From positions 84,158-148,157 of the forward strand of contig CALMGM010000010.1 of NCBI GenBank assembly GCA_937863685.1: a DNA stretch of 64,000 nt. The letters are read 5' to 3'. This document shows, piece after piece, positions 6,929 through 62,290 of the stretch (positions within the stretch are counted from its first letter, which is position 1; each line of letters begins with the position of its first letter). This DNA is from an uncultured bacterium. Its GTDB lineage: Bacteria > Edwardsbacteria > AC1 > EtOH8. Below the pieces are notes generated by a model. The model ran no database searches and had not been told where the DNA came from. It saw nothing but the letters and a program-made list of their open reading frames with translations. A program made the position numbers and the translations under genes.

Positions 6929-7017
6929 ACCACCCCCAACCCCCTCCTTGATCAAGGAGGGGATGAAGGGGATGTCTATTCATAAAAACTATAACCCATG
7001 AAGTCCAGCGTGAAAAG

Positions 7018-25441: not shown

Positions 25442-25951
25442 ATGATCTGCGATCTGTGCAAGAAGAACCAGGCGGTGATGCGCTACACCGAGGTGCGGGA
25501 CAGCCGTAACACCGAATACAACCTGTGCCGGGAGTGCGCCGAGCTCAAGGGCCTGGCCAAGAGCCTGAACCTGGCCCTGTCGTCCCTGGGCGATATGCTG
25601 GCCGGGATGATCCGCGACATCGTCACCGAGCAGGAAGATGAAAAGACGGTCAGCTGTCCCAAATGCGGGCTGGCCCTGACCGATTTTAAAAAACTGGGCC
25701 GGCTGGGATGCCCCCAGTGCTACCAGGTGTTCAATGCCAGTCTCAAACCGCTGGTCAGGCAGATACACGGGACCAACGACCACCTGGGCAAGACCGCTCC
25801 GGCCTCACATGATATCTCGGCATTCCCGTCCGAAAACATGGTCGACCGGCTTAAACAGGAACTGCAGGCCGCGGTGCTCAAAGAGGAATACGAGAGGGCC
25901 GCCTCCCTGCGGGACCAGATCCGGCAATTGGAGACCAGTGAAACCAAATGA
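25442..25951 (+). CDS. mcsA: McsA, activator of protein-arginine kinase McsB (zinc-finger + UVR domain)
   Basis: MICDLCKKNQA… with CxxC pairs (CDLC…CREC; CPKC…CPQC) and a C-terminal UVR-like coiled coil (AASLRDQIRQLE); overlaps the mcsB start. Confidence 0.8.
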   Translation: MICDLCKKNQAVMRYTEVRDSRNTEYNLCRECAELKGLAKSLNLALSSLGDMLAGMIRDIVTEQEDEKTVSCPKCGLALTDFKKLGRLGCPQCYQVFNASLKPLVRQIHGTNDHLGKTAPASHDISAFPSENMVDRLKQELQAAVLKEEYERAASLRDQIRQLETSETK

Positions 25952-27018
25952 ACCTTCCCGACAACGGCATACAGGGCCTGATCGGCCAGGAGGCCGGATG
26001 GCTTAAGGCGCCGGGCAGCGATCCCGGTATGGTGATATCCAGCCGGGTCAGGCTGGCCCGCAACCTGGCGGAGCATCTTTTCCCGGACCGGTCAGAAAAA
26101 GATGAGCGCAGCCTGGTCCGGGCCCAGGTCAGGCAGGCGGCCGGCTCGGTGAACTATTTCGGCGATGCGGCCTTCTTCGATCTGGATGTGCTGACCAGGC
26201 TCGACAAGACCGCCCTGCTGGAGCGCCGGCTGATCAGCTCCGACCTGATGGAAAAAAACAACGGGGCCGGTCTGATGGTGGGAAGAAACCAGTCGCTGGA
26301 CCTGATGATCAACGAGGAGGACCACATCCGGATGCAGAGCCTGCTGCCCGGCCTGGACCTGATCGAGGCCTTCAGGATCGTGGACCAGGTGGACGACCAG
26401 CTGCAGCAGAAACTGGAGATGGCCTATTCACCGGAGTGGGGTTTTTTGACCTGCTGTCCCAGCAATCTGGGTACCGGCTTAAGGGCCTCGCTGCTGATCC
26501 ACCTGCCGGGCCTGGTGCGGGCCAAGAGGATCGAAAAACTGCTGTCCGAGCTGGAGGGCCAGGGGATACTGGTGCGGGGTTTCCAAGGCGAGGGCAGCGA
26601 TGCGGCCGGTGACATCTTCCAGATCTCCAACCGGGCCACCCTGGGCCGGAGCGAGCTGGAGATAATTGAGAATGTGGAGCGGGTGGGGCGCAGCCTGATG
26701 GAGCAGGAGCTGGAGACCCGCCGTCATATCATGGACCACGCCCGGCGCCAGACCGAGGATAACATCTGGAGGGCCTACGGCATCCTGTCCAACGCCCGGA
26801 TGCTATCCGCCCAGGAGTTCCTGGAACTGTCGTCCTCCCTGAGGTTGGGGATATTCCTGGAGGTATTCCCCCGGCCGGGGCTGAACATCCTCAATCAGCT
26901 GCTGGTCAACACCCAGCCGGCCCACCTGCAGATCATGCTGGATTCCGAGATGGATGCCCCGGGCCGGGACTGGGAAAGGGCCCGTCTGGTCAGGGATATC
27001 ATGGCGGATTTCTTTTAA
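25948..27018 (+). CDS. mcsB: protein-arginine kinase McsB (phosphagen/ATP:guanido phosphotransferase family)
   Basis: Phosphagen-kinase active-site motif CPSNLGTGLRAS; EEDHIRMQSL segment; length 356 aa. Confidence 0.85.
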   Translation: MNLPDNGIQGLIGQEAGWLKAPGSDPGMVISSRVRLARNLAEHLFPDRSEKDERSLVRAQVRQAAGSVNYFGDAAFFDLDVLTRLDKTALLERRLISSDLMEKNNGAGLMVGRNQSLDLMINEEDHIRMQSLLPGLDLIEAFRIVDQVDDQLQQKLEMAYSPEWGFLTCCPSNLGTGLRASLLIHLPGLVRAKRIEKLLSELEGQGILVRGFQGEGSDAAGDIFQISNRATLGRSELEIIENVERVGRSLMEQELETRRHIMDHARRQTEDNIWRAYGILSNARMLSAQEFLELSSSLRLGIFLEVFPRPGLNILNQLLVNTQPAHLQIMLDSEMDAPGRDWERARLVRDIMADFF

Positions 27019-27062
27019 ACTTTCAGGACCCCAAAACAGTCAAATAGCAATGAGCGATTTTT

Positions 27063-29543
27063 ATGAAAGACAATAGGTTCACCGAAAGGACCAAAAGGGT
27101 CCTGTTCATCGCCCGCGAGGAGGCTCGGCGCCTGCAGCACGACTACATAGGCACCGAGCATATCCTGCTGGCCACCCTCCGGGAGGGCGAAGGGGTGGCG
27201 GTGGCGGTGCTTTTGAGCCTGGGCCTCAGCACCGAGCAGATCCGCCGCAAGGTTGAGGAACTGATGCCCAAGGGCGGCGAGACCATTCTGATGGGCGAAC
27301 TGCCCTTCAACCTGTCGGCCCGGCGGGCCATGGAACTGGCGGTGGAGGAGGCCAAGAACCTCCAGCACAACTACGTGGGGACCGAGCACCTGCTGCTGGG
27401 CCTGATGGACGACCAGGAGGGGATAGCCTCCCGGGCCATGGTTTCGCTGGGTCTCAGCATCGAGATGGTGCGCTCCGAGATCCTGCGCCTGCTGTCCACC
27501 GAGCCGGGATCGGCCCCGATGTCCCAGCCGGACGGCCAGGGCAAGACCCCGGCCCTGGATTATTTCTGCCGGGATCTGACCCGGCTGGCCAGGGATGGCA
27601 AACTGGACCCGGTGATCGGACGCGGCCGGGAGATAGAGAGGGTCATCCAGATCCTGTCCCGGCGCAAGAAGAACAATCCCCTGCTGATCGGCGAGGCCGG
27701 GGTGGGCAAGACCGCCATCGTGGAGGGGCTGGCCCAGAAGATAATCAGCGGTGAGGTGCCGGAACCCCTGTTGTCCAAGCGGGTGATGGCCCTGGACCTG
27801 GCCGCGGTGGTGGCCGGGACCAAGTACCGGGGACAGTTCGAGGAGCGGATGAAGGCCCTGATGAACGAACTGCGCCAGACCCAGGAGAACATCATCTTCC
27901 TGGACGAGCTGCATACCATCGTGGGGGCCGGGGGGGCCGAGGGGGCGCTGGACGCCTCCAACATGCTCAAACCGGCCCTGGCCCGGGGGGAGATGCAGTG
28001 CGTGGGGGCCACCACTCTGGACGAATACCGCAAGCACATCGAGAAGGACGGAGCCCTGGAGCGCCGCTTCCAGAGCATCATGGTGGAGGCCCCGTCGGTG
28101 GAGGAGTCGCTCAAGATCCTCAAAGGCCTGCAGGGGAAATACCAGGAGCACCACAAGGTCAAATACAGCGACGACGCCATCGAATCGACGGTCCGGCTAT
28201 CCGACCGCTATATCACCGACCGCTTCCTGCCGGACAAGGCCATCGATGTGCTGGACGAGGCCGGCTCGCGGGCCCGGCTGTCCACTTCCGAACCGCCGGC
28301 CGAGATAAAATTCCTGGAGAGCGAACTAAAGGAACTCAAGTCCCGGAAGGTGGAGGCGGTCAAGGGCCAGGATTACGAAAAGGCCGCCACTTTAAGGGAT
28401 TCGGAGAAGAACAAGCGCAAGGAAATAGAGAGGCTGCGGGAGGCCTGGAAGAAGAGCCGCGACCTGGTGGCGGTGAACATCACCGAGGAGGATATCGCCT
28501 ATGTGATCTCCCGCTGGACCGGGATCCCCATCGTCAAGCTGGAGGAAAAGGAATCCGCCCGGCTGCTGCGGATGGAACAGGACCTGAAAAAGAGGGTGGT
28601 GGGCCAGGACCAGGCCCTGGAGGCCGTCTCCCGGGCGGTGCGCCGCAGCCGGGCCGGCATCCGGGATACCCGCCGCCCCATGGGCTCGTTCATCTTCCTG
28701 GGACCCACCGGAGTGGGCAAGACCGAACTGGCCCGGGCCCTGGCCAGCTTCCTGTTCGGCGATGAGAACGCCCTGCTTAGGGTGGACATGTCGGAATATA
28801 TGGAGAAGTTCGCGGTCTCCCGGATGGTGGGGGCGCCGCCGGGCTATGTGGGTTACGACGAGGGCGGACAGCTGACCGAGAAGATCCGGCGCAAACCCTA
28901 TTCGGTGGTGCTGCTGGACGAGATAGAGAAGGCCCATCCCGACGTGTTCAACATGCTGCTGCAGGTGCTGGAGGACGGCCAGCTGACCGACTCCTACGGC
29001 CGGAAGGTCAGTTTCAAGAACGCGGTGCTGATCATGACCTCCAACCTGGGGGCCCGGGAGATCAAGAAAGGTGTCAGCCTGGGGTTTCAGAGAAACGACC
29101 AGCTGCTGGCCTTCGACCAGATGAAGGACAAGGTGATGTCGGAGCTTAAAAGGACCTTCAACCCGGAATTCCTGAACCGGGTGGACGAGGTGGTGGTGTT
29201 CAATTCACTGGGCCGGCCGGAGATGGACATGATCGTGGACATCCTGATCGGACAACTGTCTCAGCGGCTGAGGGAGAAGGATATCACCATCGGCATCTCG
29301 CCCCGGGCCAAGGAGCTTCTGGTGAACACCGGGTTCGATCCCACCTACGGGGCCCGTCCGCTGCGCCGCACCATTCAGCGGATGGTTGAGGACCCCCTTT
29401 CCCAGGAGATCCTGAAGGGCGACGTCAAGCCGGGGGACCGGGTGTTGATCGAAGCACAGGGAGAGGTGCTGAAATTCACTCCGCAATCCCGGGAAAAGTC
29501 CGAAAAAGCCGTCCGGAAAAAACGCCCTAAGGGGGAAAAGTGA
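27063..29543 (+). CDS. clpC: ATP-dependent Clp protease ATP-binding subunit ClpC (two AAA+ modules, Clp_N repeats, UVR motif)
   Basis: Double Clp_N repeats, two Walker A sites ([16 protein letters not shown]), middle UVR coiled coil ([14 protein letters not shown]), sensor motifs. Confidence 0.9.
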
Positions 29544-34064: not shown

Positions 34065-34117
34065 GTCTTATGAACGAAAATCATTCAATAAAAATACCTT
34101 CCAAGGAGAGACGCACG

Positions 34118-35503
34118 ATGCCGTTGCCGTTTGCCGAACCGTACAAGACCAAAATGGTGGAGCCCATCCGCCGCACCACCCGCCAGGAGAGGGAGAAGCT
34201 GATCGCATCAGCCGGTTACAACCTGTTCAACCTCAAAAGCGAAGATGTGTTCATCGACCTGCTGACCGACTCCGGCACCGGGGCCATGAGCAGCGCCCAG
34301 TGGGCCGAGATAATGCTGGGCGACGAGTCCTACGCCGGAGCCAGCTCCTACTACAAGCTGAAGAATACCATCGAAGAGCTTCTGGGCATGCCCTACTTTC
34401 TGCCCACCCACCAGGGCCGGGCGGCCGAGAATGTGCTTTTTTCGGCGCTTATGGGCATGGAGGCCCCGGACTTCGTAGTCCCCGGCAACAGCCACTTCGA
34501 CACCACCAAGGGCCACATCGAATTCCGCAAGGCCAAGGCCCTGGACTGCACCATCGACGAGGCCTTTGACACCTCTTCCCAGCATCCCTTCAAGGGCAAC
34601 CTGGACCTGAACAAGCTGGAGGAGGTCTTCAAGAAACATCCCAAGGAGAACATCCCGCTGTGCCTGATCACGGTCACCTGCAATTCCTCGGGCGGCCAGC
34701 CGGTGTCGCTGGAGAACATCCGGGCGGTGTCGGCCATGTGCAAGAAGTACGGTATCAGACTGTTCTTCGACGCCGCCCGCTTTGCCGAGAACGCCTACTT
34801 CATCAAAGCGCGCGAGCCGGGGTATGCCGATAAAAGCATCAAGCAGATCGTGAGGGAGATGTTCGATCTGGTTGACGGCTGCACCATGAGCGCCAAAAAG
34901 GACGGCATCGTCAACATTGGAGGATTCATCGCCTTCAGGGACAAGGAACTGTTCGAAAGATCCTGCACCTTCAACATAGTGTTCGAGGGCTACATCACCT
35001 ACGGCGGGATGGCCGGCCGGGACCTGGGAGCTCTCTCAGTAGGCCTGCGTGAGGCCACCGAGTTTGATTACCTGGAATCGCGTATTCGTCAGGTCAGGCT
35101 GCTGGGAGAGAAGCTGATGTCCTGCCGTATACCCATCCAGGAGCCGGTGGGCGGGCACGCCGTGTTCGTGGACGCCAAAAAATTCCTGCCCAATGTTCCC
35201 AAGGAGCAGTACGTGGCCCAGACCCTGGGGGTGGAACTTTACAAGGAGGGCGGAATAAGGGGAGTGGAGATCGGAACTCTTCTAGCCGACCGGGATCCCC
35301 AGACCAGGGAGAACCGCTATCCTGCCCTGGAGCTGCTACGCCTGGCCATTCCGCGCCGGGTCTATAGCGACAACCAGATGCTGTATGTGGTCGAGTGCTT
35401 GAAGAATGTTTATGATCGGAGAGACCAGATCAAAAAAGGCTACGCCATAGTTCACGAGGCGCCGATCATGAGGCACTTCACAGTAGAACTGCGCCCAGTA
35501 TAA
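34118..35503 (+). CDS. tnaA: tryptophanase / tyrosine phenol-lyase family beta-eliminating lyase (PLP-dependent)
   Basis: Near full-length collinear similarity to TnaA (…VFIDLLTDSGTGAMS…, PTHQGRAAE, SAKKDG PLP-lysine region, FDAARFAENAYFIK, RHFTVELRPV); AAGGAGAG RBS; ORF opens earlier at 34070. Confidence 0.85.
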   Translation: MPLPFAEPYKTKMVEPIRRTTRQEREKLIASAGYNLFNLKSEDVFIDLLTDSGTGAMSSAQWAEIMLGDESYAGASSYYKLKNTIEELLGMPYFLPTHQGRAAENVLFSALMGMEAPDFVVPGNSHFDTTKGHIEFRKAKALDCTIDEAFDTSSQHPFKGNLDLNKLEEVFKKHPKENIPLCLITVTCNSSGGQPVSLENIRAVSAMCKKYGIRLFFDAARFAENAYFIKAREPGYADKSIKQIVREMFDLVDGCTMSAKKDGIVNIGGFIAFRDKELFERSCTFNIVFEGYITYGGMAGRDLGALSVGLREATEFDYLESRIRQVRLLGEKLMSCRIPIQEPVGGHAVFVDAKKFLPNVPKEQYVAQTLGVELYKEGGIRGVEIGTLLADRDPQTRENRYPALELLRLAIPRRVYSDNQMLYVVECLKNVYDRRDQIKKGYAIVHEAPIMRHFTVELRPV

Positions 35504-35550: not shown

Positions 35551-36201
35551 TTACCTTAAGTCCTTGTCGAAATTCTTTACTGCCGATATTATCATTTGGG
35601 CGGTTTCCTTATTGTTTCGGAGAAGACCTGGCCTTAGAAATACATTGTAGCATTTGATGGCCAGAATTGCGAGCTGGCCGGGGTTGCCAGATACGGACCC
35701 TGCCGGGAAAATCGTGGTGTTTTCTTTTAAAAATTCAGCCGCTGCCATTACAGCCGAATGCTGCCGGCGGTCCAGCTTATCTTTATATTTGAATATCCAT
35801 CGGCGCACTTGCTGATCGACAAGCTTTTTCTCCTTGCCTCCGGCATCTATGCCGGCCGCGGCGAATATCCGGCAGTCATAATTACGGCAGGTTATCGGGC
35901 GGTCTTCATATATTGAACACTGGCCTTCCCGCAGCATAGGGCAGCAACCGTTTTTATCATAACCAAGAACCATATTACCCTTGGGAAGTCCCGGCGCCGG
36001 AAACAACAGTCTGTTGTCTATTCTGGCTATAGTTCCGGTCTCTTCCGGCTTGATATGAATGAATTGCGAAGACCTGCAACAGGCATTGCAATCACCGCAT
36101 TTTACATTGACCCCGGTCTCGTTTTTTAACGCCTTCCGGAAACGGCTCAACCAGGTTGAAAACTGACCGACAGGGAGAGGCTTTGTTTTGCGGCTTTTCA
36201 T
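35551..36201 (-). CDS. YkgJ-family Cys-cluster protein (CxxCxxCC zinc/iron-chelating domain)
   Basis: CGDCNACC motif plus additional Cys pairs (CCPM, CRNYDC). Confidence 0.55.
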   Translation of the reverse strand: MKSRKTKPLPVGQFSTWLSRFRKALKNETGVNVKCGDCNACCRSSQFIHIKPEETGTIARIDNRLLFPAPGLPKGNMVLGYDKNGCCPMLREGQCSIYEDRPITCRNYDCRIFAAAGIDAGGKEKKLVDQQVRRWIFKYKDKLDRRQHSAVMAAAEFLKENTTIFPAGSVSGNPGQLAILAIKCYNVFLRPGLLRNNKETAQMIISAVKNFDKDLR

Positions 36202-36230
36202 TGAAAGGAAATATCTATAAAATAAAACGT

Positions 36231-36980
36231 TTAGATTGAAATATTATCGCCGGCAGATAATTTACCTATGCCGAGTTCATCATAAAATCTGGCCAGAGTG
36301 GAAAGATCTATGCAGTGCATCGGATAGATATGCTTGGGCCGTTCCTTTTTAAAATAACGGATGGTTCCTTCCACCGCTTTCGGATCGTTCTCAAACAGAT
36401 GGAACCCGCCGATCACGGCGAAAAGCTTTTGGCCGGTCACCTGCTTGGCGTGCTGACATATATTGCAGATGCCAGAATGGGAACAGCCGGTGATGACCAC
36501 CGCCCCGTTCCTGGTCTTGATAGCCAGGGCTGAATCGTCAGACATCCGCTTTTCTTTGAACAGCCCTTTTTCAAATCTATTAACCCGGGGGATCTCGCCC
36601 AGATAAAAGACGCCGCGGGATAATTGCAGTGGTTCGGCCGAGGCAATGATCTGGAAATCATTATGTATCTTCCGGGCCTCTTTTGCCGGCAGTTTGGCGA
36701 TCAATTCCGGGTGGACGACCAGGTTCTTTTTCGCTTTGAAACCATGATGCTGCAAGCCGCCTACGTGATCCCAGTGGTGATGCGACAGCACTATGAAATC
36801 TGTCTCATTCAAATCAAGTTTCAATCGTTTGGCATTGTGCCGGTAAACGTCGGTATGACCGGCATCGAAAAGCAGGTTGATATCCTTGGTTTGGAGATAC
36901 AAAGACAAACCCCATTCGGCCAGGCATGATTTGGCGTTTTTATGGCCGGCCTGGTTTTCACAGAGGACTGTTATTTTCAT
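36231..36980 (-). CDS. MBL-fold metallo-hydrolase
   Basis: HHHWDH metal-binding motif (LSHHHWDHVGG) and downstream His/Asp ligands. Confidence 0.65.
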   Translation of the reverse strand: MKITVLCENQAGHKNAKSCLAEWGLSLYLQTKDINLLFDAGHTDVYRHNAKRLKLDLNETDFIVLSHHHWDHVGGLQHHGFKAKKNLVVHPELIAKLPAKEARKIHNDFQIIASAEPLQLSRGVFYLGEIPRVNRFEKGLFKEKRMSDDSALAIKTRNGAVVITGCSHSGICNICQHAKQVTGQKLFAVIGGFHLFENDPKAVEGTIRYFKKERPKHIYPMHCIDLSTLARFYDELGIGKLSAGDNISI

Positions 36981-37001
36981 GACGCAAGAAATATTCGCAG
37001 T

Positions 37002-37883
37002 TTACAATGACTGGTTGTCAGGGAGGACACGGTAATTCTTTTGAATATAGATGAATCCCGAGAAAACGATCAGGGCCAGGATGATGAAAACCATCAGGTC
37101 CCGCATCATAAAGGTGGGGTCATGGTTGAAATACATCACCAAACCCATGGCATTGACCGCAATGATCATGGTAAGGAAGAAGCCATAGAACAGGAATTGT
37201 ATGGGATAGGTGGTATCGGGCCTGGTCCACAACAAGTAAACGCTGAGCAACCCCAGCGGGATGGAGAACCCCAGGTCGAAGATGCGCACCACCCAGAAGG
37301 CGGTGGGCGCGATATCATAGGCCCGGGTGGTGCCGGTGGCCATCACCTCCAACACCTCCTTGACCCACATGGAGGCAAAGACCAGCAGGAAGAACGAGAA
37401 CAGGACCGAATAGATTATCAGCGGCTTCTTCCTGAAACGGCTCTCCACCTTCCGGGGGAATATGGAAAGCGAATAAAGCAGGATCATAAGGGAGGCGATC
37501 AGGATGAAAAGAAAATAGAAGGTGTACCCTTCGCTGTTGCCGGAGTATTTCGGGGAGCTCCATTCCCATCCGATGGTGTAGCACAGTACGTAGTATATCA
37601 GATAGAGCGGGGTAACGATCAGAAGATACTTTGAGATCTGTTTTTTCAGGAAAAGGGCCGCCCCGCCGGCGATCAGGACGACGCTCAACAGGAAAAGGTT
37701 CACCAGGTCCTGGCCGATCAGCTGGTTGTTCAATATCTCCGCCGTTTTGTATCTGATCTGATGCAGAAACAACGGGCCTTTGACCGCCAAAAAGATAAGA
37801 ATGATGCCGGTCACGATGGACAGAAACCCCATAAAGATGCGTTCAAAGGGTGTGCCAAAGGTTGTTTCATTTTTGTTATTCAT
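37002..37883 (-). CDS. hypothetical polytopic membrane protein (~9 TM)
   Basis: Long hydrophobic helices throughout; no recognisable motif; tightly packed with the flanking genes (21-nt and 39-nt spacers). Confidence 0.45.
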   Translation of the reverse strand: MNNKNETTFGTPFERIFMGFLSIVTGIILIFLAVKGPLFLHQIRYKTAEILNNQLIGQDLVNLFLLSVVLIAGGAALFLKKQISKYLLIVTPLYLIYYVLCYTIGWEWSSPKYSGNSEGYTFYFLFILIASLMILLYSLSIFPRKVESRFRKKPLIIYSVLFSFFLLVFASMWVKEVLEVMATGTTRAYDIAPTAFWVVRIFDLGFSIPLGLLSVYLLWTRPDTTYPIQFLFYGFFLTMIIAVNAMGLVMYFNHDPTFMMRDLMVFIILALIVFSGFIYIQKNYRVLPDNQSL

Positions 37884-37922
37884 GTTGTGGAAGCTTCTTT
37901 CATCAAACAGTAAGTAACACTA

Positions 37923-38396
37923 TTATATATACCTGCGGGTCTTTTGCCGGTAATCCTCATAAACTTTGCCAAACCTCTGCGACAAGAACTTTTCCTCGCC
38001 CAGAATGATGAAATGATAGATCGCAATGCTGTAAATACCCAGCGATATCACTCCAGGATTAAATGTATATAACATTGCTGACAGGGTGAGCAGATCGAAG
38101 CCCAGGTACATCGGGTTGCGGCTGAAGCGGTACAGGCCGCCTGTCTTGAAGACAGTGTCATCCTGCGGCAGGCCCAGCCTGGTGGACCGGCCAAGATTGA
38201 ACAGGCTTACGCTGATCAATAAAAGTCCGACCAAGGATAAAGCATATGCGGTGTATTTGAATAGCGAAGACGAATATGTTTCTATGGCCGGGAAACCCAG
38301 CACCGACAACAGTAATATGATCCAGGTTAAGTAGCCGGATATTTTCCCGGTATAGAACAGTGCCGGATTTATTGTAGACTTGCCTATGAGATCCAT
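37923..38396 (-). CDS. isoprenylcysteine carboxyl methyltransferase (ICMT)/phospholipid methyltransferase-family membrane protein
   Basis: C-terminal RNPMY…EE..L…FG..Y signature of the ICMT/PEMT family; 4-5 TM helices. Confidence 0.6.
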   Translation of the reverse strand: MDLIGKSTINPALFYTGKISGYLTWIILLLSVLGFPAIETYSSSLFKYTAYALSLVGLLLISVSLFNLGRSTRLGLPQDDTVFKTGGLYRFSRNPMYLGFDLLTLSAMLYTFNPGVISLGIYSIAIYHFIILGEEKFLSQRFGKVYEDYRQKTRRYI

Positions 38397-38397
38397 A

Positions 38398-38494
38398 TTA
38401 CGCCTTCAGATGCTTTTTGATAAATCTGCAGATCTGCTCCATCGCCTCTTTGGTCTCGGGGAACATCGGGGCGCAGGCCGGGTAGCAGTGTGAA
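38398..38494 (-). pseudogene. 3'-terminal remnant (last 31 codons + stop) of an alpha/beta-hydrolase paralog
   Basis: Minus-strand translation SHCYPACAPMFPETKEAMEQICRFIKKHLKA* matches the C-terminus of the esterase at 38983-39930 (…HCYPACAPMFPEAKEAMEEISRFVKKHLKA*); DNA near-identical over ~40 nt; starts 1 nt after the GNAT stop. Confidence 0.55.
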
Positions 38495-38920
38495 CTATAT
38501 ATTCTTTTTCATATAATATCGCTTATGTTCCAAGGGGCAATCGTCTAGTACCCCAAAAACCTCATATCCATGTTTAAGATAAAATTCTTTTGCTTGAAAA
38601 TCAAAAGTATCCAAATGAATTAATCTGCACCCTTTTTCTTTTGCGGCTTTTTCTACTTCATTTAAAAGCGCCGAACCATATCCATCCTTCCGAAACTCCT
38701 CTTTAACCCACAAAACATCTATACACAGGCAATTCCAACAATATAAAGTACTATTTATCCCCGCTATCATTTCCCCATTTGACCCTTTTATAACCTTATT
38801 GATTGACTCAAAAGCTATTTCTTGCGTAAAAGGAACTTTCGATAAATTATATTCAATTATACTCTTATTAACCAAATCATATTCTTCGCTTGTGCTTTTC
38901 TCAATTACATAATTTATCAT
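38495..38920 (-). CDS. GNAT-family N-acetyltransferase (AT-rich gene)
   Basis: Acetyl-CoA-binding motif region (…EEFRKDGYGSALLNEVEKAAKEKGCRLIHLDT…); AAGGGGA RBS; much lower GC than flanks. Confidence 0.7.
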   Translation of the reverse strand: MINYVIEKSTSEEYDLVNKSIIEYNLSKVPFTQEIAFESINKVIKGSNGEMIAGINSTLYCWNCLCIDVLWVKEEFRKDGYGSALLNEVEKAAKEKGCRLIHLDTFDFQAKEFYLKHGYEVFGVLDDCPLEHKRYYMKKNI

Positions 38921-38982
38921 CTTTAGTTCCCCTTGTTTGCTTTATTTTAAAATACCCCGACTGTTTGCGGCGAGGTCAGGCA

Positions 38983-39930
38983 TCAGGCCTTCAAATGCTT
39001 TTTTACAAAACGACTGATCTCTTCCATGGCTTCTTTTGCCTCGGGGAACATCGGAGCGCAGGCCGGGTAGCAGTGGAACAGTCCTTGGCCAACGATCAAG
39101 GTAACATCAACCCCGGCGGCCCTGGCCTTTTCCGCCAGCCGGGTGGAATCGCTGAGCAGGGTCTCGTCCCCGCCGGCGAAGATCAGCATGGGCGGCAGGC
39201 CGACCAGGTCCCCGAACAGCGGCGAGATCAAAGGATCCGTCGGGTCGTTCTTTCCGGCATAGTACCGGCTGAAGGTGGTCTGTGATTCCTTCCAGCAAAG
39301 GGTGTCCTTCTGGGCGTTGAATATCCAGGATTCTCCGGAATTGGTCAGATCGGTCCAGGGCGAGAGGGCTATGGATGCGCCGGGCAGGGGAAGCCCCTGT
39401 TCCTTAAGGGCCAGCTGGGTGGCAAAGACCAGGTTGCCGCCCCCGGAATCTCCCATGAAAACCACGTCTCCGGGCTTGATGCCGTGTTCCAGCAGATATT
39501 TGTAGGCGGCTACCGAATCATTCAGCCCCTGGGGATATGGATGCTCCGGGGCCAGGCCGTAATCGAACAACAGGGATTGAATCCCGCACTTTTTCACGAA
39601 CTTGGCCACGATGCCCCGGTGGGCCCTGATGGAACCTACCACCAGCCCGCCCCCGTGGAAGTAAAGAATGGCCTTGTCCCTGGGCGCATCCTTGGGTCTC
39701 ATCCATTCGGTATTCAGGTTCCCGATCATGACAGGCTCCAAGGTGAAGCCCTCCGGCAGTTTGCCGAAGAAATCCGCTCCCCGTTCGACCTCTGCCCGCA
39801 AGGCCTGCAGGGAGGTGTCGCCGTCGACCGTGGTGGTCCTTTTCTTCTGGAATTTCAGCAGGTGCCGGTATTTCAGTAGGAAGATAAAAAGGCGGCTTCG
39901 GAAGCTGGGCATTTTAGGATATTCCTTCAT
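38983..39930 (-). CDS. alpha/beta-hydrolase, HSL-like esterase/lipase family (start uncertain: ATG 39930 or 39912; ORF opens at 40032)
   Basis: HGGG oxyanion motif (YFHGGGLVVGS) and GDSGGG nucleophile motif; catalytic Asp/His region near the C-terminus. Confidence 0.7.
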   Translation of the reverse strand: MKEYPKMPSFRSRLFIFLLKYRHLLKFQKKRTTTVDGDTSLQALRAEVERGADFFGKLPEGFTLEPVMIGNLNTEWMRPKDAPRDKAILYFHGGGLVVGSIRAHRGIVAKFVKKCGIQSLLFDYGLAPEHPYPQGLNDSVAAYKYLLEHGIKPGDVVFMGDSGGGNLVFATQLALKEQGLPLPGASIALSPWTDLTNSGESWIFNAQKDTLCWKESQTTFSRYYAGKNDPTDPLISPLFGDLVGLPPMLIFAGGDETLLSDSTRLAEKARAAGVDVTLIVGQGLFHCYPACAPMFPEAKEAMEEISRFVKKHLKA

Positions 39931-40372
39931 TTTTAGTAGCCGTTGATTTCGATTGTCTTTCCAGGTATTCTTTCTTTCGCAAGGCAATCCTGTCCCGCTC
40001 TCCTTGGAGCACGGAAGCCACGTCAAGTTCATCTATGCCATCGTCAAAGGAGCAGATATGGGGGTCCGCCGGCACCTGATAACAGGAGCCGTCTTTATTC
40101 CTGGTGAGGTAACCGACGTCTATCAAATAGCGGCGCACGGTGACATGATCAACTCCCTTTATTCCGACGATCTCTGATATCCAAAACTGCAGTTTGGCAT
40201 CGATTTCTTGTTCGCAAAAGGGGCCGCTATGATCCAGGGTCAAAACCGCGCTTTTCAATAAAATGTGCTGCTCCTCGTTGCCGGTGGGAAAACCAGATAA
40301 CCCACTTCGGAGACATAGGTCACAAAGCCGTTTGGTAAAATATTCCTTGGTTATGACTTTTGAAATGGTCAT
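39914..40372 (-). CDS. hypothetical protein, DUF2087-like C-terminal region
   Basis: …HVTVRRYLIDVGYLTRNKDGSCYQV resembles the DUF2087 C-terminal motif; weak assignment. Confidence 0.3.
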   Translation of the reverse strand: MTISKVITKEYFTKRLCDLCLRSGLSGFPTGNEEQHILLKSAVLTLDHSGPFCEQEIDAKLQFWISEIVGIKGVDHVTVRRYLIDVGYLTRNKDGSCYQVPADPHICSFDDGIDELDVASVLQGERDRIALRKKEYLERQSKSTATKNEGIS

Positions 40373-40415
40373 AATAATATTTTTTATCTGTTTTCGATTT
40401 TCCGGATTACTTTAT

Positions 40416-40442
40416 AAAGGCCCCGCTAGTGCGGGGCCTTTT
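40416..40442. terminator. hairpin terminator between GIY-YIG gene and DUF2087-like gene
   Basis: AAAGGCCCCGCtagtGCGGGGCCTTTT read directly. Confidence 0.5.
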
Positions 40443-40460
40443 GTTCGATTGAATACACTG

Positions 40461-40817
40461 CTACCGCTTGGTATGATATCCCCTATCCCCGTAAGGCTGG
40501 AGCTTTTCGATCCAGATCTGCTCCAGGGCTTTAAGATCCCCGGTGTAATCGTAGCTGATGCCCTCCTTGGGCTCCAGATGATCCAGCACCTCAAAGAAAA
40601 AATTGTTTTCCCCCAGCCGGGTATAATCCTTCTGCAACTCCGAATTGGGATGGGAGCCGTGGCTGAGGCTGAACTTTTGACTGTTGATGATGCCGGGAAG
40701 GTTCTTGGCCTTCATTAATAATATCTTGCCGTTGGCAAGATTCTTGATCTGAAGAATGCCCATCGGAGTCAACGTTTGCTTGTACTCTTTTATCAGTTTC
40801 TTTCTGTCGGTCATCAA
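40461..40817 (-). CDS. small GIY-YIG nuclease-domain protein
   Basis: GILQIKNLANGKILLMKAKNL…FEVLDHLE follows the GIY…YIG…N…E spacing of GIY-YIG domains; 118 aa, stand-alone. Confidence 0.45.
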   Translation of the reverse strand: MMTDRKKLIKEYKQTLTPMGILQIKNLANGKILLMKAKNLPGIINSQKFSLSHGSHPNSELQKDYTRLGENNFFFEVLDHLEPKEGISYDYTGDLKALEQIWIEKLQPYGDRGYHTKR

Positions 40818-56334: not shown

Positions 56335-56419
56335 GCGAGGGTGGCGGAACTGGCAGACGCGCCAGACTTAGGATCTGGTGCCGCAAGGCGTGGGGGTTCG
56401 ACTCCCCCCCTTCGCACCA
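56335..56419 (+). tRNA. tRNA-Leu (anticodon TAG), CCA encoded
   Basis: GCGAGGG…CCTTCGCACCA acceptor pairing, anticodon stem CCAGA/TCTGG with loop CTTAGGA, long variable arm, GGTTCGACTCC T-arm. Confidence 0.85.
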
Positions 56420-62065: not shown

Positions 62066-62142
62066 TGGTAGCGGCTCAGGGACTTGAACCCCGGACACGC
62101 GGATTATGATTCCGCTGCTCTAACCAGCTGAGCTAAGCCGCC
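62066..62142 (-). tRNA. tRNA with CAT anticodon (elongator Met, or Ile2/lysidine type)
   Basis: RC reads GGCGGCTTAGCTCAGCTGGTTAGAGCAGCGGAATCATAATCCGCG…GGTTCAAGTCC…GCCGCTACCA; 77 nt, cloverleaf-consistent. Confidence 0.8.
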
Positions 62143-62213: not shown

Positions 62214-62290
62214 TGGTAGCGGGGGGAGGATTTGAACCTCCGACCTTTGGGTTATGGGCCCAACGAGCTACCAGGCTGCTCCACCCCGCG
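62214..62290 (-). tRNA. initiator tRNA-fMet (CAT)
   Basis: RC reads CGCGGGGTGGAGCAGCCTGGTAGCTCGTTGGGCCCATAACCCAAAGGTCGGAGGTTCAAATCCTCCCCCCGCTACCA: three G-C pairs in the anticodon stem and C1xA72-type end typical of initiators. Confidence 0.85.

Follow-up and report, generated by a model that had tools for sequence, protein, structure and literature searches.

A 64,000-nucleotide (nt) stretch of DNA from an uncultured bacterium of the Edwardsbacteria lineage (hereafter the window; assembly GCA_937863685.1, contig CALMGM010000010.1) carries a GNAT acetyltransferase gene of low guanine-plus-cytosine (GC) content behind an intact esterase gene and ahead of a second, truncated esterase 3' end. 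On the minus strand the order is a DUF2087 gene, the esterase, a 62-nt spacer, GNAT, a 93-nt remnant of an esterase end and a methyltransferase of the ICMT/PEMT family (here ICMT). We consider it likely that this arrangement arose through one illegitimate joint, made at the level of microhomology, which then spread between lineages by homologous recombination. Loci and contigs from relatives are designated by L numbers and individual proteins by P numbers.

A repeat search of positions 37800-40100 returned a single long repeat, a direct repeat of 94 nt (38397-38490 and 38982-39075) with 83% identity and a period of 585 nt. An initial annotation of the window had described an AT-rich GNAT gene between an intact esterase and an esterase 3'-end remnant; its coordinates and spacings were right, and the remnant encodes SHCYPACAPMFPETKEAMEQICRFIKKHLKA followed by a stop, as had been claimed. 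Compared codon by codon, the two copies agree at 78 of 96 nt and 26 of 31 residues, contain no insertions or deletions, and both end in a stop codon; synonymous changes account for 7 of the 12 differing sense codons. Identity is highest in the block CACTGC...CCCGAG (35 of 36 nt) and falls to about 70% beyond it. The annotation had reported near-identity over the last ~40 nt; the near-identity is real, but it occupies the gene-proximal 36 nt, which are last only in plus-strand coordinates. The GNAT stop codon TAG lies at 38497-38495, the remnant frame runs from 38493 to a TAA at 38400-38398, and 1 nt separates this TAA from the ICMT ATG at 38396-38394. The remnant sequence showed no start codon accompanied by a ribosome-binding site. 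The remnant contains a Shine-Dalgarno-like GAAGG (38403-38407), 6 nt ahead of the ICMT ATG.

The intact esterase matched the Pfam family Abhydrolase_3 (3.7e-52) and, below that model's cutoff, the NCBIfam model for GESAG-type hormone-sensitive lipases (2.2e-79). It is 88-92% identical in amino acid sequence to Ca. Edwardsbacteria esterases, which start MPSF or MPSW, and falls in a 90%-identity cluster with several proteins from metagenome-assembled genomes (MAGs) of Candidatus Edwardsbacteria. Its start was placed at ATG 39912, as in all homologues; a longer mechanical open reading frame (ORF) begins at 40032.

Comparison with relatives revealed the arrangement without the insert. In L001-L003 (GCA_018829145.1 and two further assemblies of the same organism), L017 and L020, the stop codon of a full-length esterase is followed after 1-2 nt by the ICMT start, with no GNAT gene between them; in L001 the esterase ends at 6930 and the PEMT gene starts at 6932. 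The adjacency of esterase and ICMT that the annotation had suggested seeking in relatives was thus seen in L001, L017 and L020. The remnant together with ICMT (38495-37924) aligns to L001 6834-7404 as a single uninterrupted block at 76.8% identity, and the same block is 74.9% identical to L020. Because the remnant and ICMT are collinear with the relatives' junction, the remnant is the tail of an esterase gene that formerly ran straight into ICMT. Two features expected of a scar left by Campbell-type integration or by homology-facilitated illegitimate recombination (HFIR) are present: relatives have an empty site, where the anchor gene is joined directly to the downstream gene, and part of the anchor gene is directly repeated on either side of the insert.

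The GNAT gene differs in composition from its surroundings, with 32.2% GC versus 53.7% for the whole window. It matched Pfam Acetyltransf_1 (2.2e-12), scoring 47.7 and 47.4 bits against PF00583 and PF13508 (curated cutoffs, 20.7 and 27); its best solved relative is PDB 1y9w (1.4e-34), an uncharacterised acetyltransferase, and no NCBIfam resistance model reached its cutoff. The closest named homologues come from Clostridium spp. (73-79% amino acid identity), and the gene is 88, 85 and 85% identical at the nucleotide level to genes on the contigs L011-L013, which have 32-33% GC. On these contigs the GNAT genes have 29-31% GC, which is the local composition, and within four Edwardsbacteria-like loci of 51-54% GC they have 31-33%. 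These data show that the gene is clostridial in type and was acquired horizontally, in agreement with the foreign, low-GC gene first proposed. The ratio of nonsynonymous to synonymous divergence (dN/dS) is ~0.1 in all comparisons, and the gene is therefore under selection.

The borders of the foreign DNA are compact. Similarity to the low-GC contexts extends ~30 nt upstream of the gene (TAAA..AAA..GGGGAAACTAA..ATG, ribosome-binding site included) and ~8 nt downstream (TTCA.CAT). Judged from these alignments, the foreign stretch amounts to only ~470 bp, comprising a leader with its ribosome-binding site, the ORF and ~6-8 nt past the stop. In the spacer, the first ~24 nt are GC-rich and the last ~38 nt, which include the GNAT ribosome-binding site, are AT-rich; the spacer is conserved in L005, L007 and L009, and the AT-rich part aligns with the GNAT leader on L011-L013. 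A longer duplication of ~120 nt, with the GC-rich part of the spacer read as a remnant of the ICMT 5' end, was rejected (p = 0.13-0.97 versus shuffles, with three ICMT starts).

Members of the same family were also seen in other settings. A more distant copy, at L008:6001-6426 (82% nucleotide identity, 33% GC, in a genome of 51% GC), lies at an unrelated site, 41 nt ahead of a glycogen phosphorylase gene, and is an independent acquisition of the same clostridial-type gene. On low-GC, clostridial-type contigs (L011:1-3719 and L013:908-5110), GNAT adjoins FtsX/MacB-type ABC transporters and a two-component system. By analogy, this neighbourhood recalls peptide-antibiotic resistance modules and may hint at a selected role.

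Two further arrangements bear on how the joint between GNAT and the remnant was made. In L005/L006, the esterase, the same spacer and GNAT are followed by TAGTTCACATTGTGG, with neither remnant nor ICMT. Between GNAT and a 290-amino-acid (aa) membrane gene, L005 has 294 nt of native intergenic DNA, which matches part of L014 at 95% identity and also contains the terminator/promoter module known from L001/L004; readings of these 294 nt as donor DNA or as a decayed remnant were rejected on the basis of these matches. In L009/L010, from MAG MFD01299.bin.1.238, the joint TAGTTCACACTGCTACCCGG is identical to that of the window. The remnant there encodes a sequence ending in DEICGFVKKYLG and a stop, identical to the C terminus of a real esterase allele, P0374, of the L015 type, and in L009 it is followed by an L015-type leader/spacer and a 293-aa gene. 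The left flank differs as well, with 316-aa and 246-aa genes in L009/L010 versus DUF2087 in the window. GNAT has 31.5% GC in L009/L010 and has not taken on host GC, although relatives with the three-part arrangement and GNAT at host GC had been named as grounds for dismissing a foreign cassette.

The parental sequences at the joint can be inferred from relatives. In L012, the 3' flank of GNAT reads TAATTCAACATAT (TTCAACAT within the joint comparison), and the joint combines a GNAT flank of this kind (GTTCACA in L005) with esterase sequence GTTCCACTGC, giving GTTCACACTGC. With parents so inferred, the overlap between GTTCACA and GTTCCAC is 2 nt (CA) or 4 nt (GTTC), depending on the register. 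As read from these alignments, the joint between GNAT and the esterase appears to be illegitimate and of microhomology level. It was probably made once, because an identical joint is unlikely to have arisen twice.

The 36-nt block shared by the two copies, CACTGCTACCCGGCCTGCGCCCCGATGTTCCCCGAG (HCYPACAPMFPE; window 39040-39075 and 38455-38490), surrounds the presumed catalytic histidine. It is near-invariant at the DNA level in all esterase alleles and both remnants, although overall synonymous divergence (dS) reaches 0.5-0.9. Because every relative has it in near-invariant form, its identity between the copies reflects conservation and is not a sign of recent duplication; such a block is likely a preferred crossover site. 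The variable sequence beyond it is informative. Over the last 54 nt, the remnant differs from the window's own esterase end at 13 positions and from L007/L009 at 6, and the intact end differs from the L001/L020 alleles at 2-3 positions and from the L005/L007/L009 alleles at 9-11. These differences show that the remnant is an esterase allele distinct from the window's own copy and not a duplicate of the resident gene end. Local duplication is therefore disfavoured, and exchange between lineages is indicated. A tandem duplication confined to this genome, with the two esterase 3' ends diverging locally afterwards, would explain why a direct repeat flanks the insert, and the threonine in the remnant's ETK is absent from all fetched homologues with an alignable C terminus. 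However, the remnant is closer to other lineages' alleles than to its own genome's copy, and its freedom from indels and stops and its share of synonymous codon differences are as between functional alleles, so we regard an origin in place as very unlikely. We also considered the crossed linkage of the two ends, the intact end resembling the ICMT-linked L001/L020 and the remnant resembling the spacer-linked L005/L007/L009, as proof of a single crossover at the stop codon. This proof was weakened by P0370 and P0371, and the pattern is retained only as a sign that the copies are different alleles.

Divergence was lower in GNAT than in the genes around it. In comparisons of the window with L005/L009, GNAT had a dS of 0.18-0.22, the esterase one of 0.49-0.57 and the membrane gene one of 0.52-0.63; the corresponding values for L005 versus L009 were 0.23, 0.26 and 0.38. 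The body of the window esterase falls outside a well-supported clade of L005, L007 and L009 (99.5% bootstrap). Because of the lower GNAT dS, the placement in the esterase tree and the differing contexts on both flanks, we consider it probable that the GNAT block entered the lineage of the window laterally, through homologous recombination within the esterase gene and the 93-nt fragment. An alternative is a single ancient insertion with target duplication that predates the split of the window, L009 and L005 and was inherited vertically, without the block ever having moved between lineages. Such a history needs later deletion or replacement of ICMT in L009, of the remnant in L005 and of GNAT in L007. 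The junction shared by the window and L009 is what it predicts, the esterase tree is poorly resolved outside the L005/L007/L009 clade (bootstrap 16-32), and the slot is often locally replaced, as in L005 and L007, which have different genes after ATGAAAAAT. In contrast, it does not readily explain why, for the window versus L005/L009, dS is 2.5-3 times lower in GNAT than in both flanking genes whereas the genes agree between L005 and L009, why both flanks differ between the window and L009 (ICMT versus the 293-aa gene on the downstream side), why the L009 remnant is identical to a living allele rather than decayed, or why the native intergenic DNA after GNAT in L005 holds no trace of a remnant. 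Purely vertical descent is thus unlikely in our assessment.

Several observations nevertheless weigh against the favoured reading. The lower GNAT dS rests on 13-15 synonymous differences and could result partly from codon and composition constraints on an AT-rich gene. Because esterase identity is patchy (65-95%), the transferred block lacks sharp borders. The coupling between allele type and downstream context is loose: P0370 and P0371 have IC-type C termini though they are apparently on the contigs of the closest ICMTs. The direction of exchange in the window therefore cannot be fixed. Vertical history with later downstream replacements would look much the same. L009 and L010 are overlapping contigs from a single MAG and so provide one independent witness between them. 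No second assembly of the window's exact arrangement emerged from exact-protein look-ups of GNAT, ICMT, the esterase and P0241, and the window's own junctions are known from assembly alone. A junction pattern scan of JGI metagenomes likewise gave no second copy of the arrangement.

We also weighed the possibility that the window is an assembly chimera in which an esterase-GNAT strain and an esterase-ICMT strain were merged through shared esterase k-mers. The 36-nt block is near-identical among strains, and assemblers do struggle here, contig L010 breaking off 31 nt into the remnant. A k-mer chimera, however, cannot create the joint between GNAT and the esterase, which recurs in an independent MAG and is followed through the whole remnant in L009. 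The variable part of the remnant matches nothing else in the window, so that a second full esterase of that type would have to exist unassembled, and there are records of the three window proteins from NCBI, ENA and Logan. An artefact of this kind is accordingly highly improbable. In the MFD MAG itself, L010 and L009 overlap by ~4.1 kb at 97-100% identity (L010:5416-5447 and L009:1-4148), and the break in the assembly exactly at the repeat suggests strain heterogeneity at the slot.

The initial annotation had also raised the possibility of an integron-like event. GNAT genes are common integron cassettes, and the insert is a single promoter-less ORF with tight borders whose joint recurs in two contexts, as capture of a cassette at the esterase 3' end by a site-specific recombinase would predict. 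However, no attC-like fold was detected on either strand at the two sites that had been proposed for such a search (38398-38494 and 38921-38982) or at 38440-38530, where z-scores versus shuffles were -0.21 to +1.25; spacer, remnant and junction thus fold no better than shuffled sequence. The repeat search found no inverted repeats flanking GNAT or at its termini, a Pfam scan of 18 ORFs within 25.9-47.5 kb found no recombinase or transposase domain, and the GNAT border GTTCACA does not fit the GTTRRRY core. Moreover, the flanking repeats are 83% identical rather than identical, and L008 carries the same gene family at an unrelated site with no shared flank. Integron-like or other site-specific capture is therefore extremely unlikely, and of the cassette insertion or replacement first put forward, recombination at the esterase 3' end stands, with the empty site in relatives, and the integron-like component falls. 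The earlier view that the insert is not a transposon was borne out by the same searches; in addition, the 93-nt flanking repeat is gene sequence, versus the short target-site duplication of 2-15 bp expected of a transposon. Promoter and terminator scans gave nothing specific at the GNAT borders. By these searches, the GNAT insert is neither an integron cassette nor a transposon. It occupies a variable slot without mobility genes between conserved genes, resembling a minimal mobile element.

The contents of the slot vary from relative to relative. Immediately downstream of the esterase are GNAT in the window, L005 and L009, ICMT in L001 and L020, a metallo-beta-lactamase (MBL)-fold gene in L004, a 293-aa gene in L015 and further genes in L014 and L019. 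In L007, whose esterase body is 98.7% identical to that of L005 (excluding the last 100 alignment columns), an unrelated AT-rich ORF of 232 aa replaces GNAT (L007:3241-4004; compare window 38904-38982). The two loci part immediately behind their common spacer, ribosome-binding site and ATGAAAAAT, so that one leader is used by two different genes. The 232-aa product has a signal-peptide-like N terminus, as in a secreted protein.

We propose that ~470 bp of clostridial-type DNA, consisting of the leader, the 141-codon GNAT gene and ~6-8 nt past its stop, would have been inserted just downstream of the esterase in an Edwardsbacteria-like lineage, with L005 representing the state after this first insertion. 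In one later illegitimate event, the GNAT 3' flank (TTCACA) would have been joined to codon His280 of an esterase gene at 2-4 nt of microhomology, either through a single crossover of a re-circularised fragment or through a homology-facilitated illegitimate join inside the anchor. This joint would have created a unit of esterase end, spacer, GNAT and 93-nt esterase fragment. Ordinary homologous recombination, with the esterase body for a left arm and the 93-nt fragment for a right arm, could then have carried this unit from one diverged lineage to another. In each recipient, the tail of an esterase allele would have become fused to the resident downstream genes (ICMT in the window and the 293-aa membrane gene in L009). 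The remnant may have been kept since it holds the ribosome-binding site and translation-start region of ICMT, and GNAT would be read as one more gene of a co-directional operon.

Each of these processes has precedents. The minimal mobile element concept was reportedly introduced by Saunders and Snyder in 2002 (cited in PMC1797815). When re-circularised, truncated molecules integrated by single crossover in conjugation assays with E. coli, duplications of homologous gene ends of 109-950 bp were left in 56 of 60 clones (PMC3240628). The window resembles such Campbell-type integration in that a direct duplication of a homologous gene end, here of 93 bp, flanks the insert, no dedicated recombinase is involved and the illegitimate joint would have been made before integration. 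It differs in that the process is inferred from natural genomes, the repeat copies are different alleles and the putative circle would measure only 585 bp; linear exchange over two arms accounts for the spread just as well. HFIR, which takes place in naturally transformable bacteria, inserts DNA with 3-10 bp of microhomology, usually with a deletion (as summarised in PMC3240628). Here too, one homologous anchor (the esterase) and one joint at a few bases of putative microhomology would trap ~0.5-1 kb of foreign DNA. However, HFIR normally deletes recipient DNA of similar size, whereas in the window the joint lies inside the anchor and 93 nt are duplicated, and the 2-4 nt of microhomology are at or below the usual range. 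In Neisseria, minimal mobile elements are variable slots between conserved genes, often of low GC, that are exchanged via flanking homology (PMC1797815; PMC4269198), as exemplified by the low-GC drg gene in the leuS/dam locus (PMC4269198). The likeness extends to a syntenic slot that has alternative inserts of one to few genes by strain and lacks mobility genes. By analogy, it may also extend to the frequently low GC of the inserts and to their exchange through homologous recombination between flanking sequences. Unlike the Neisseria elements, the present case comes from another phylum known here only from metagenomes, and one arm is a 93-nt gene fragment that travels with the insert and leaves a visible scar. 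Integron cassettes share with the insert a single short ORF, often a GNAT gene, that follows an upstream gene in the same direction and lacks its own promoter, but the window shows no attC, IntI, cassette array or GTTRRRY core at the borders in the ORFs, folds and repeats checked. The mechanisms are already known, and this example is new; the locus is a clean but unremarkable trace of gene gain through recombination rather than a novel class of mobile element.

A more far-reaching idea is that the 585-bp unit (93-nt esterase end, leader and GNAT) is a self-contained, integrase-free "homology-anchored cassette". Recombination between its 93-nt repeats would release it as a circle, which could integrate again at any allele of the esterase. 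The slot might then be a landing pad of general use, at which different AT-rich genes take turns behind one leader (spacer, ribosome-binding site and ATGAAAAAT). Such a role is hinted at by the 232-aa gene of L007, but we think it quite unlikely that the unit behaves in this way.

The coordinates of the features discussed are collected below.

Features of the esterase-GNAT-ICMT locus, in window positions
Feature	Position	Strand	Remarks
DUF2087 gene	39914-40372	-	
Intact esterase, 309 aa, hormone-sensitive-lipase/Abhydrolase_3 family	38983-39912	-	ATG 39912-39910, TGA 38985-38983
Repeat copy 1: last 30 codons and stop of the esterase, from His280 (CAC 39075-39073)	38983-39075	-	
62-nt spacer, esterase stop to GNAT start	38921-38982	-	
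GNAT acetyltransferase gene, 141 aa, 32% GC, acquired horizontally	38495-38920	-	Pfam Acetyltransf_1/7
Apparent illegitimate junction TAG-TTCACA/CTGC: GNAT stop, ~6 nt of donor-type flank, esterase from the His codon	38485-38497	-	
Repeat copy 2: start-less esterase 3'-end remnant, 30 codons and TAA	38398-38490	-	
ICMT/PEMT-family membrane methyltransferase, 157 aa	37923-38396	-	Pfam PEMT 2.2e-10, ICMT 2.2e-06
Variable islet of small co-directional accessory genes	35551-40817	-	Contents vary by relative

Downstream of ICMT on the minus strand are genes for a 293-aa membrane protein, an MBL-fold protein and a CxxCxxCC protein. These three, with ICMT, GNAT, the esterase, DUF2087 and a 118-aa ORF, make up the variable islet, which is bounded by a lyase gene (34070-35503, adjoining LpxD) and PBP1A. 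Conserved genes flank it, with ClpC, BamA, Skp, LpxD and the beta-eliminating lyase on one side and PBP1A, YggS, DivIVA and PNP on the other. The gene content of the islet was different in every relative examined, whereas PBP1A and the LpxD/BamA/lyase group were conserved and syntenic; PBP1A beside the islet is 85-88% identical at the nucleotide level to Edwardsbacteria contigs. The MBL-fold protein (36231-36980, minus strand; 249 aa) matched only general Lactamase_B families at E <= 0.01, and its counterparts in L001, L002 and L004 have a precomputed Pfam match to PF23023 (Anti-Pycsar Apyc1). The 118-aa ORF (40461-40817, minus strand) adjoins PBP1A and is kept in relatives (117 aa in L001 and L004); it had no Pfam match and a weak NCBIfam match, below cutoff, to group I intron endonucleases of the GIY-YIG type (E = 0.0017). 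At 25948-29543 on the plus strand, a gene for an McsB-like ATP:guanido phosphotransferase (2.5e-56) lies directly upstream of one for a ClpC-type AAA+ chaperone. The pairing of protein arginine kinase and ClpC is best known from Firmicutes. Rfam matches in the window were limited to three tRNA genes distant from the locus, at 56335-56416 (plus strand), 62069-62142 and 62217-62290 (both minus strand).

From an uncultured phylum, the locus offers a well-resolved natural case in which a single foreign gene has become part of a chromosome and has probably spread across diverged lineages without mobile-element machinery. The scar records the joint, and relatives keep the "before," "intermediate" and "after" states, which makes the locus useful as a teaching or benchmark case for the detection of recombination scars and for the annotation of short gene remnants. 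It opens no new mechanistic question; a more interesting lead may be what GNAT, acquired repeatedly, does for its hosts.

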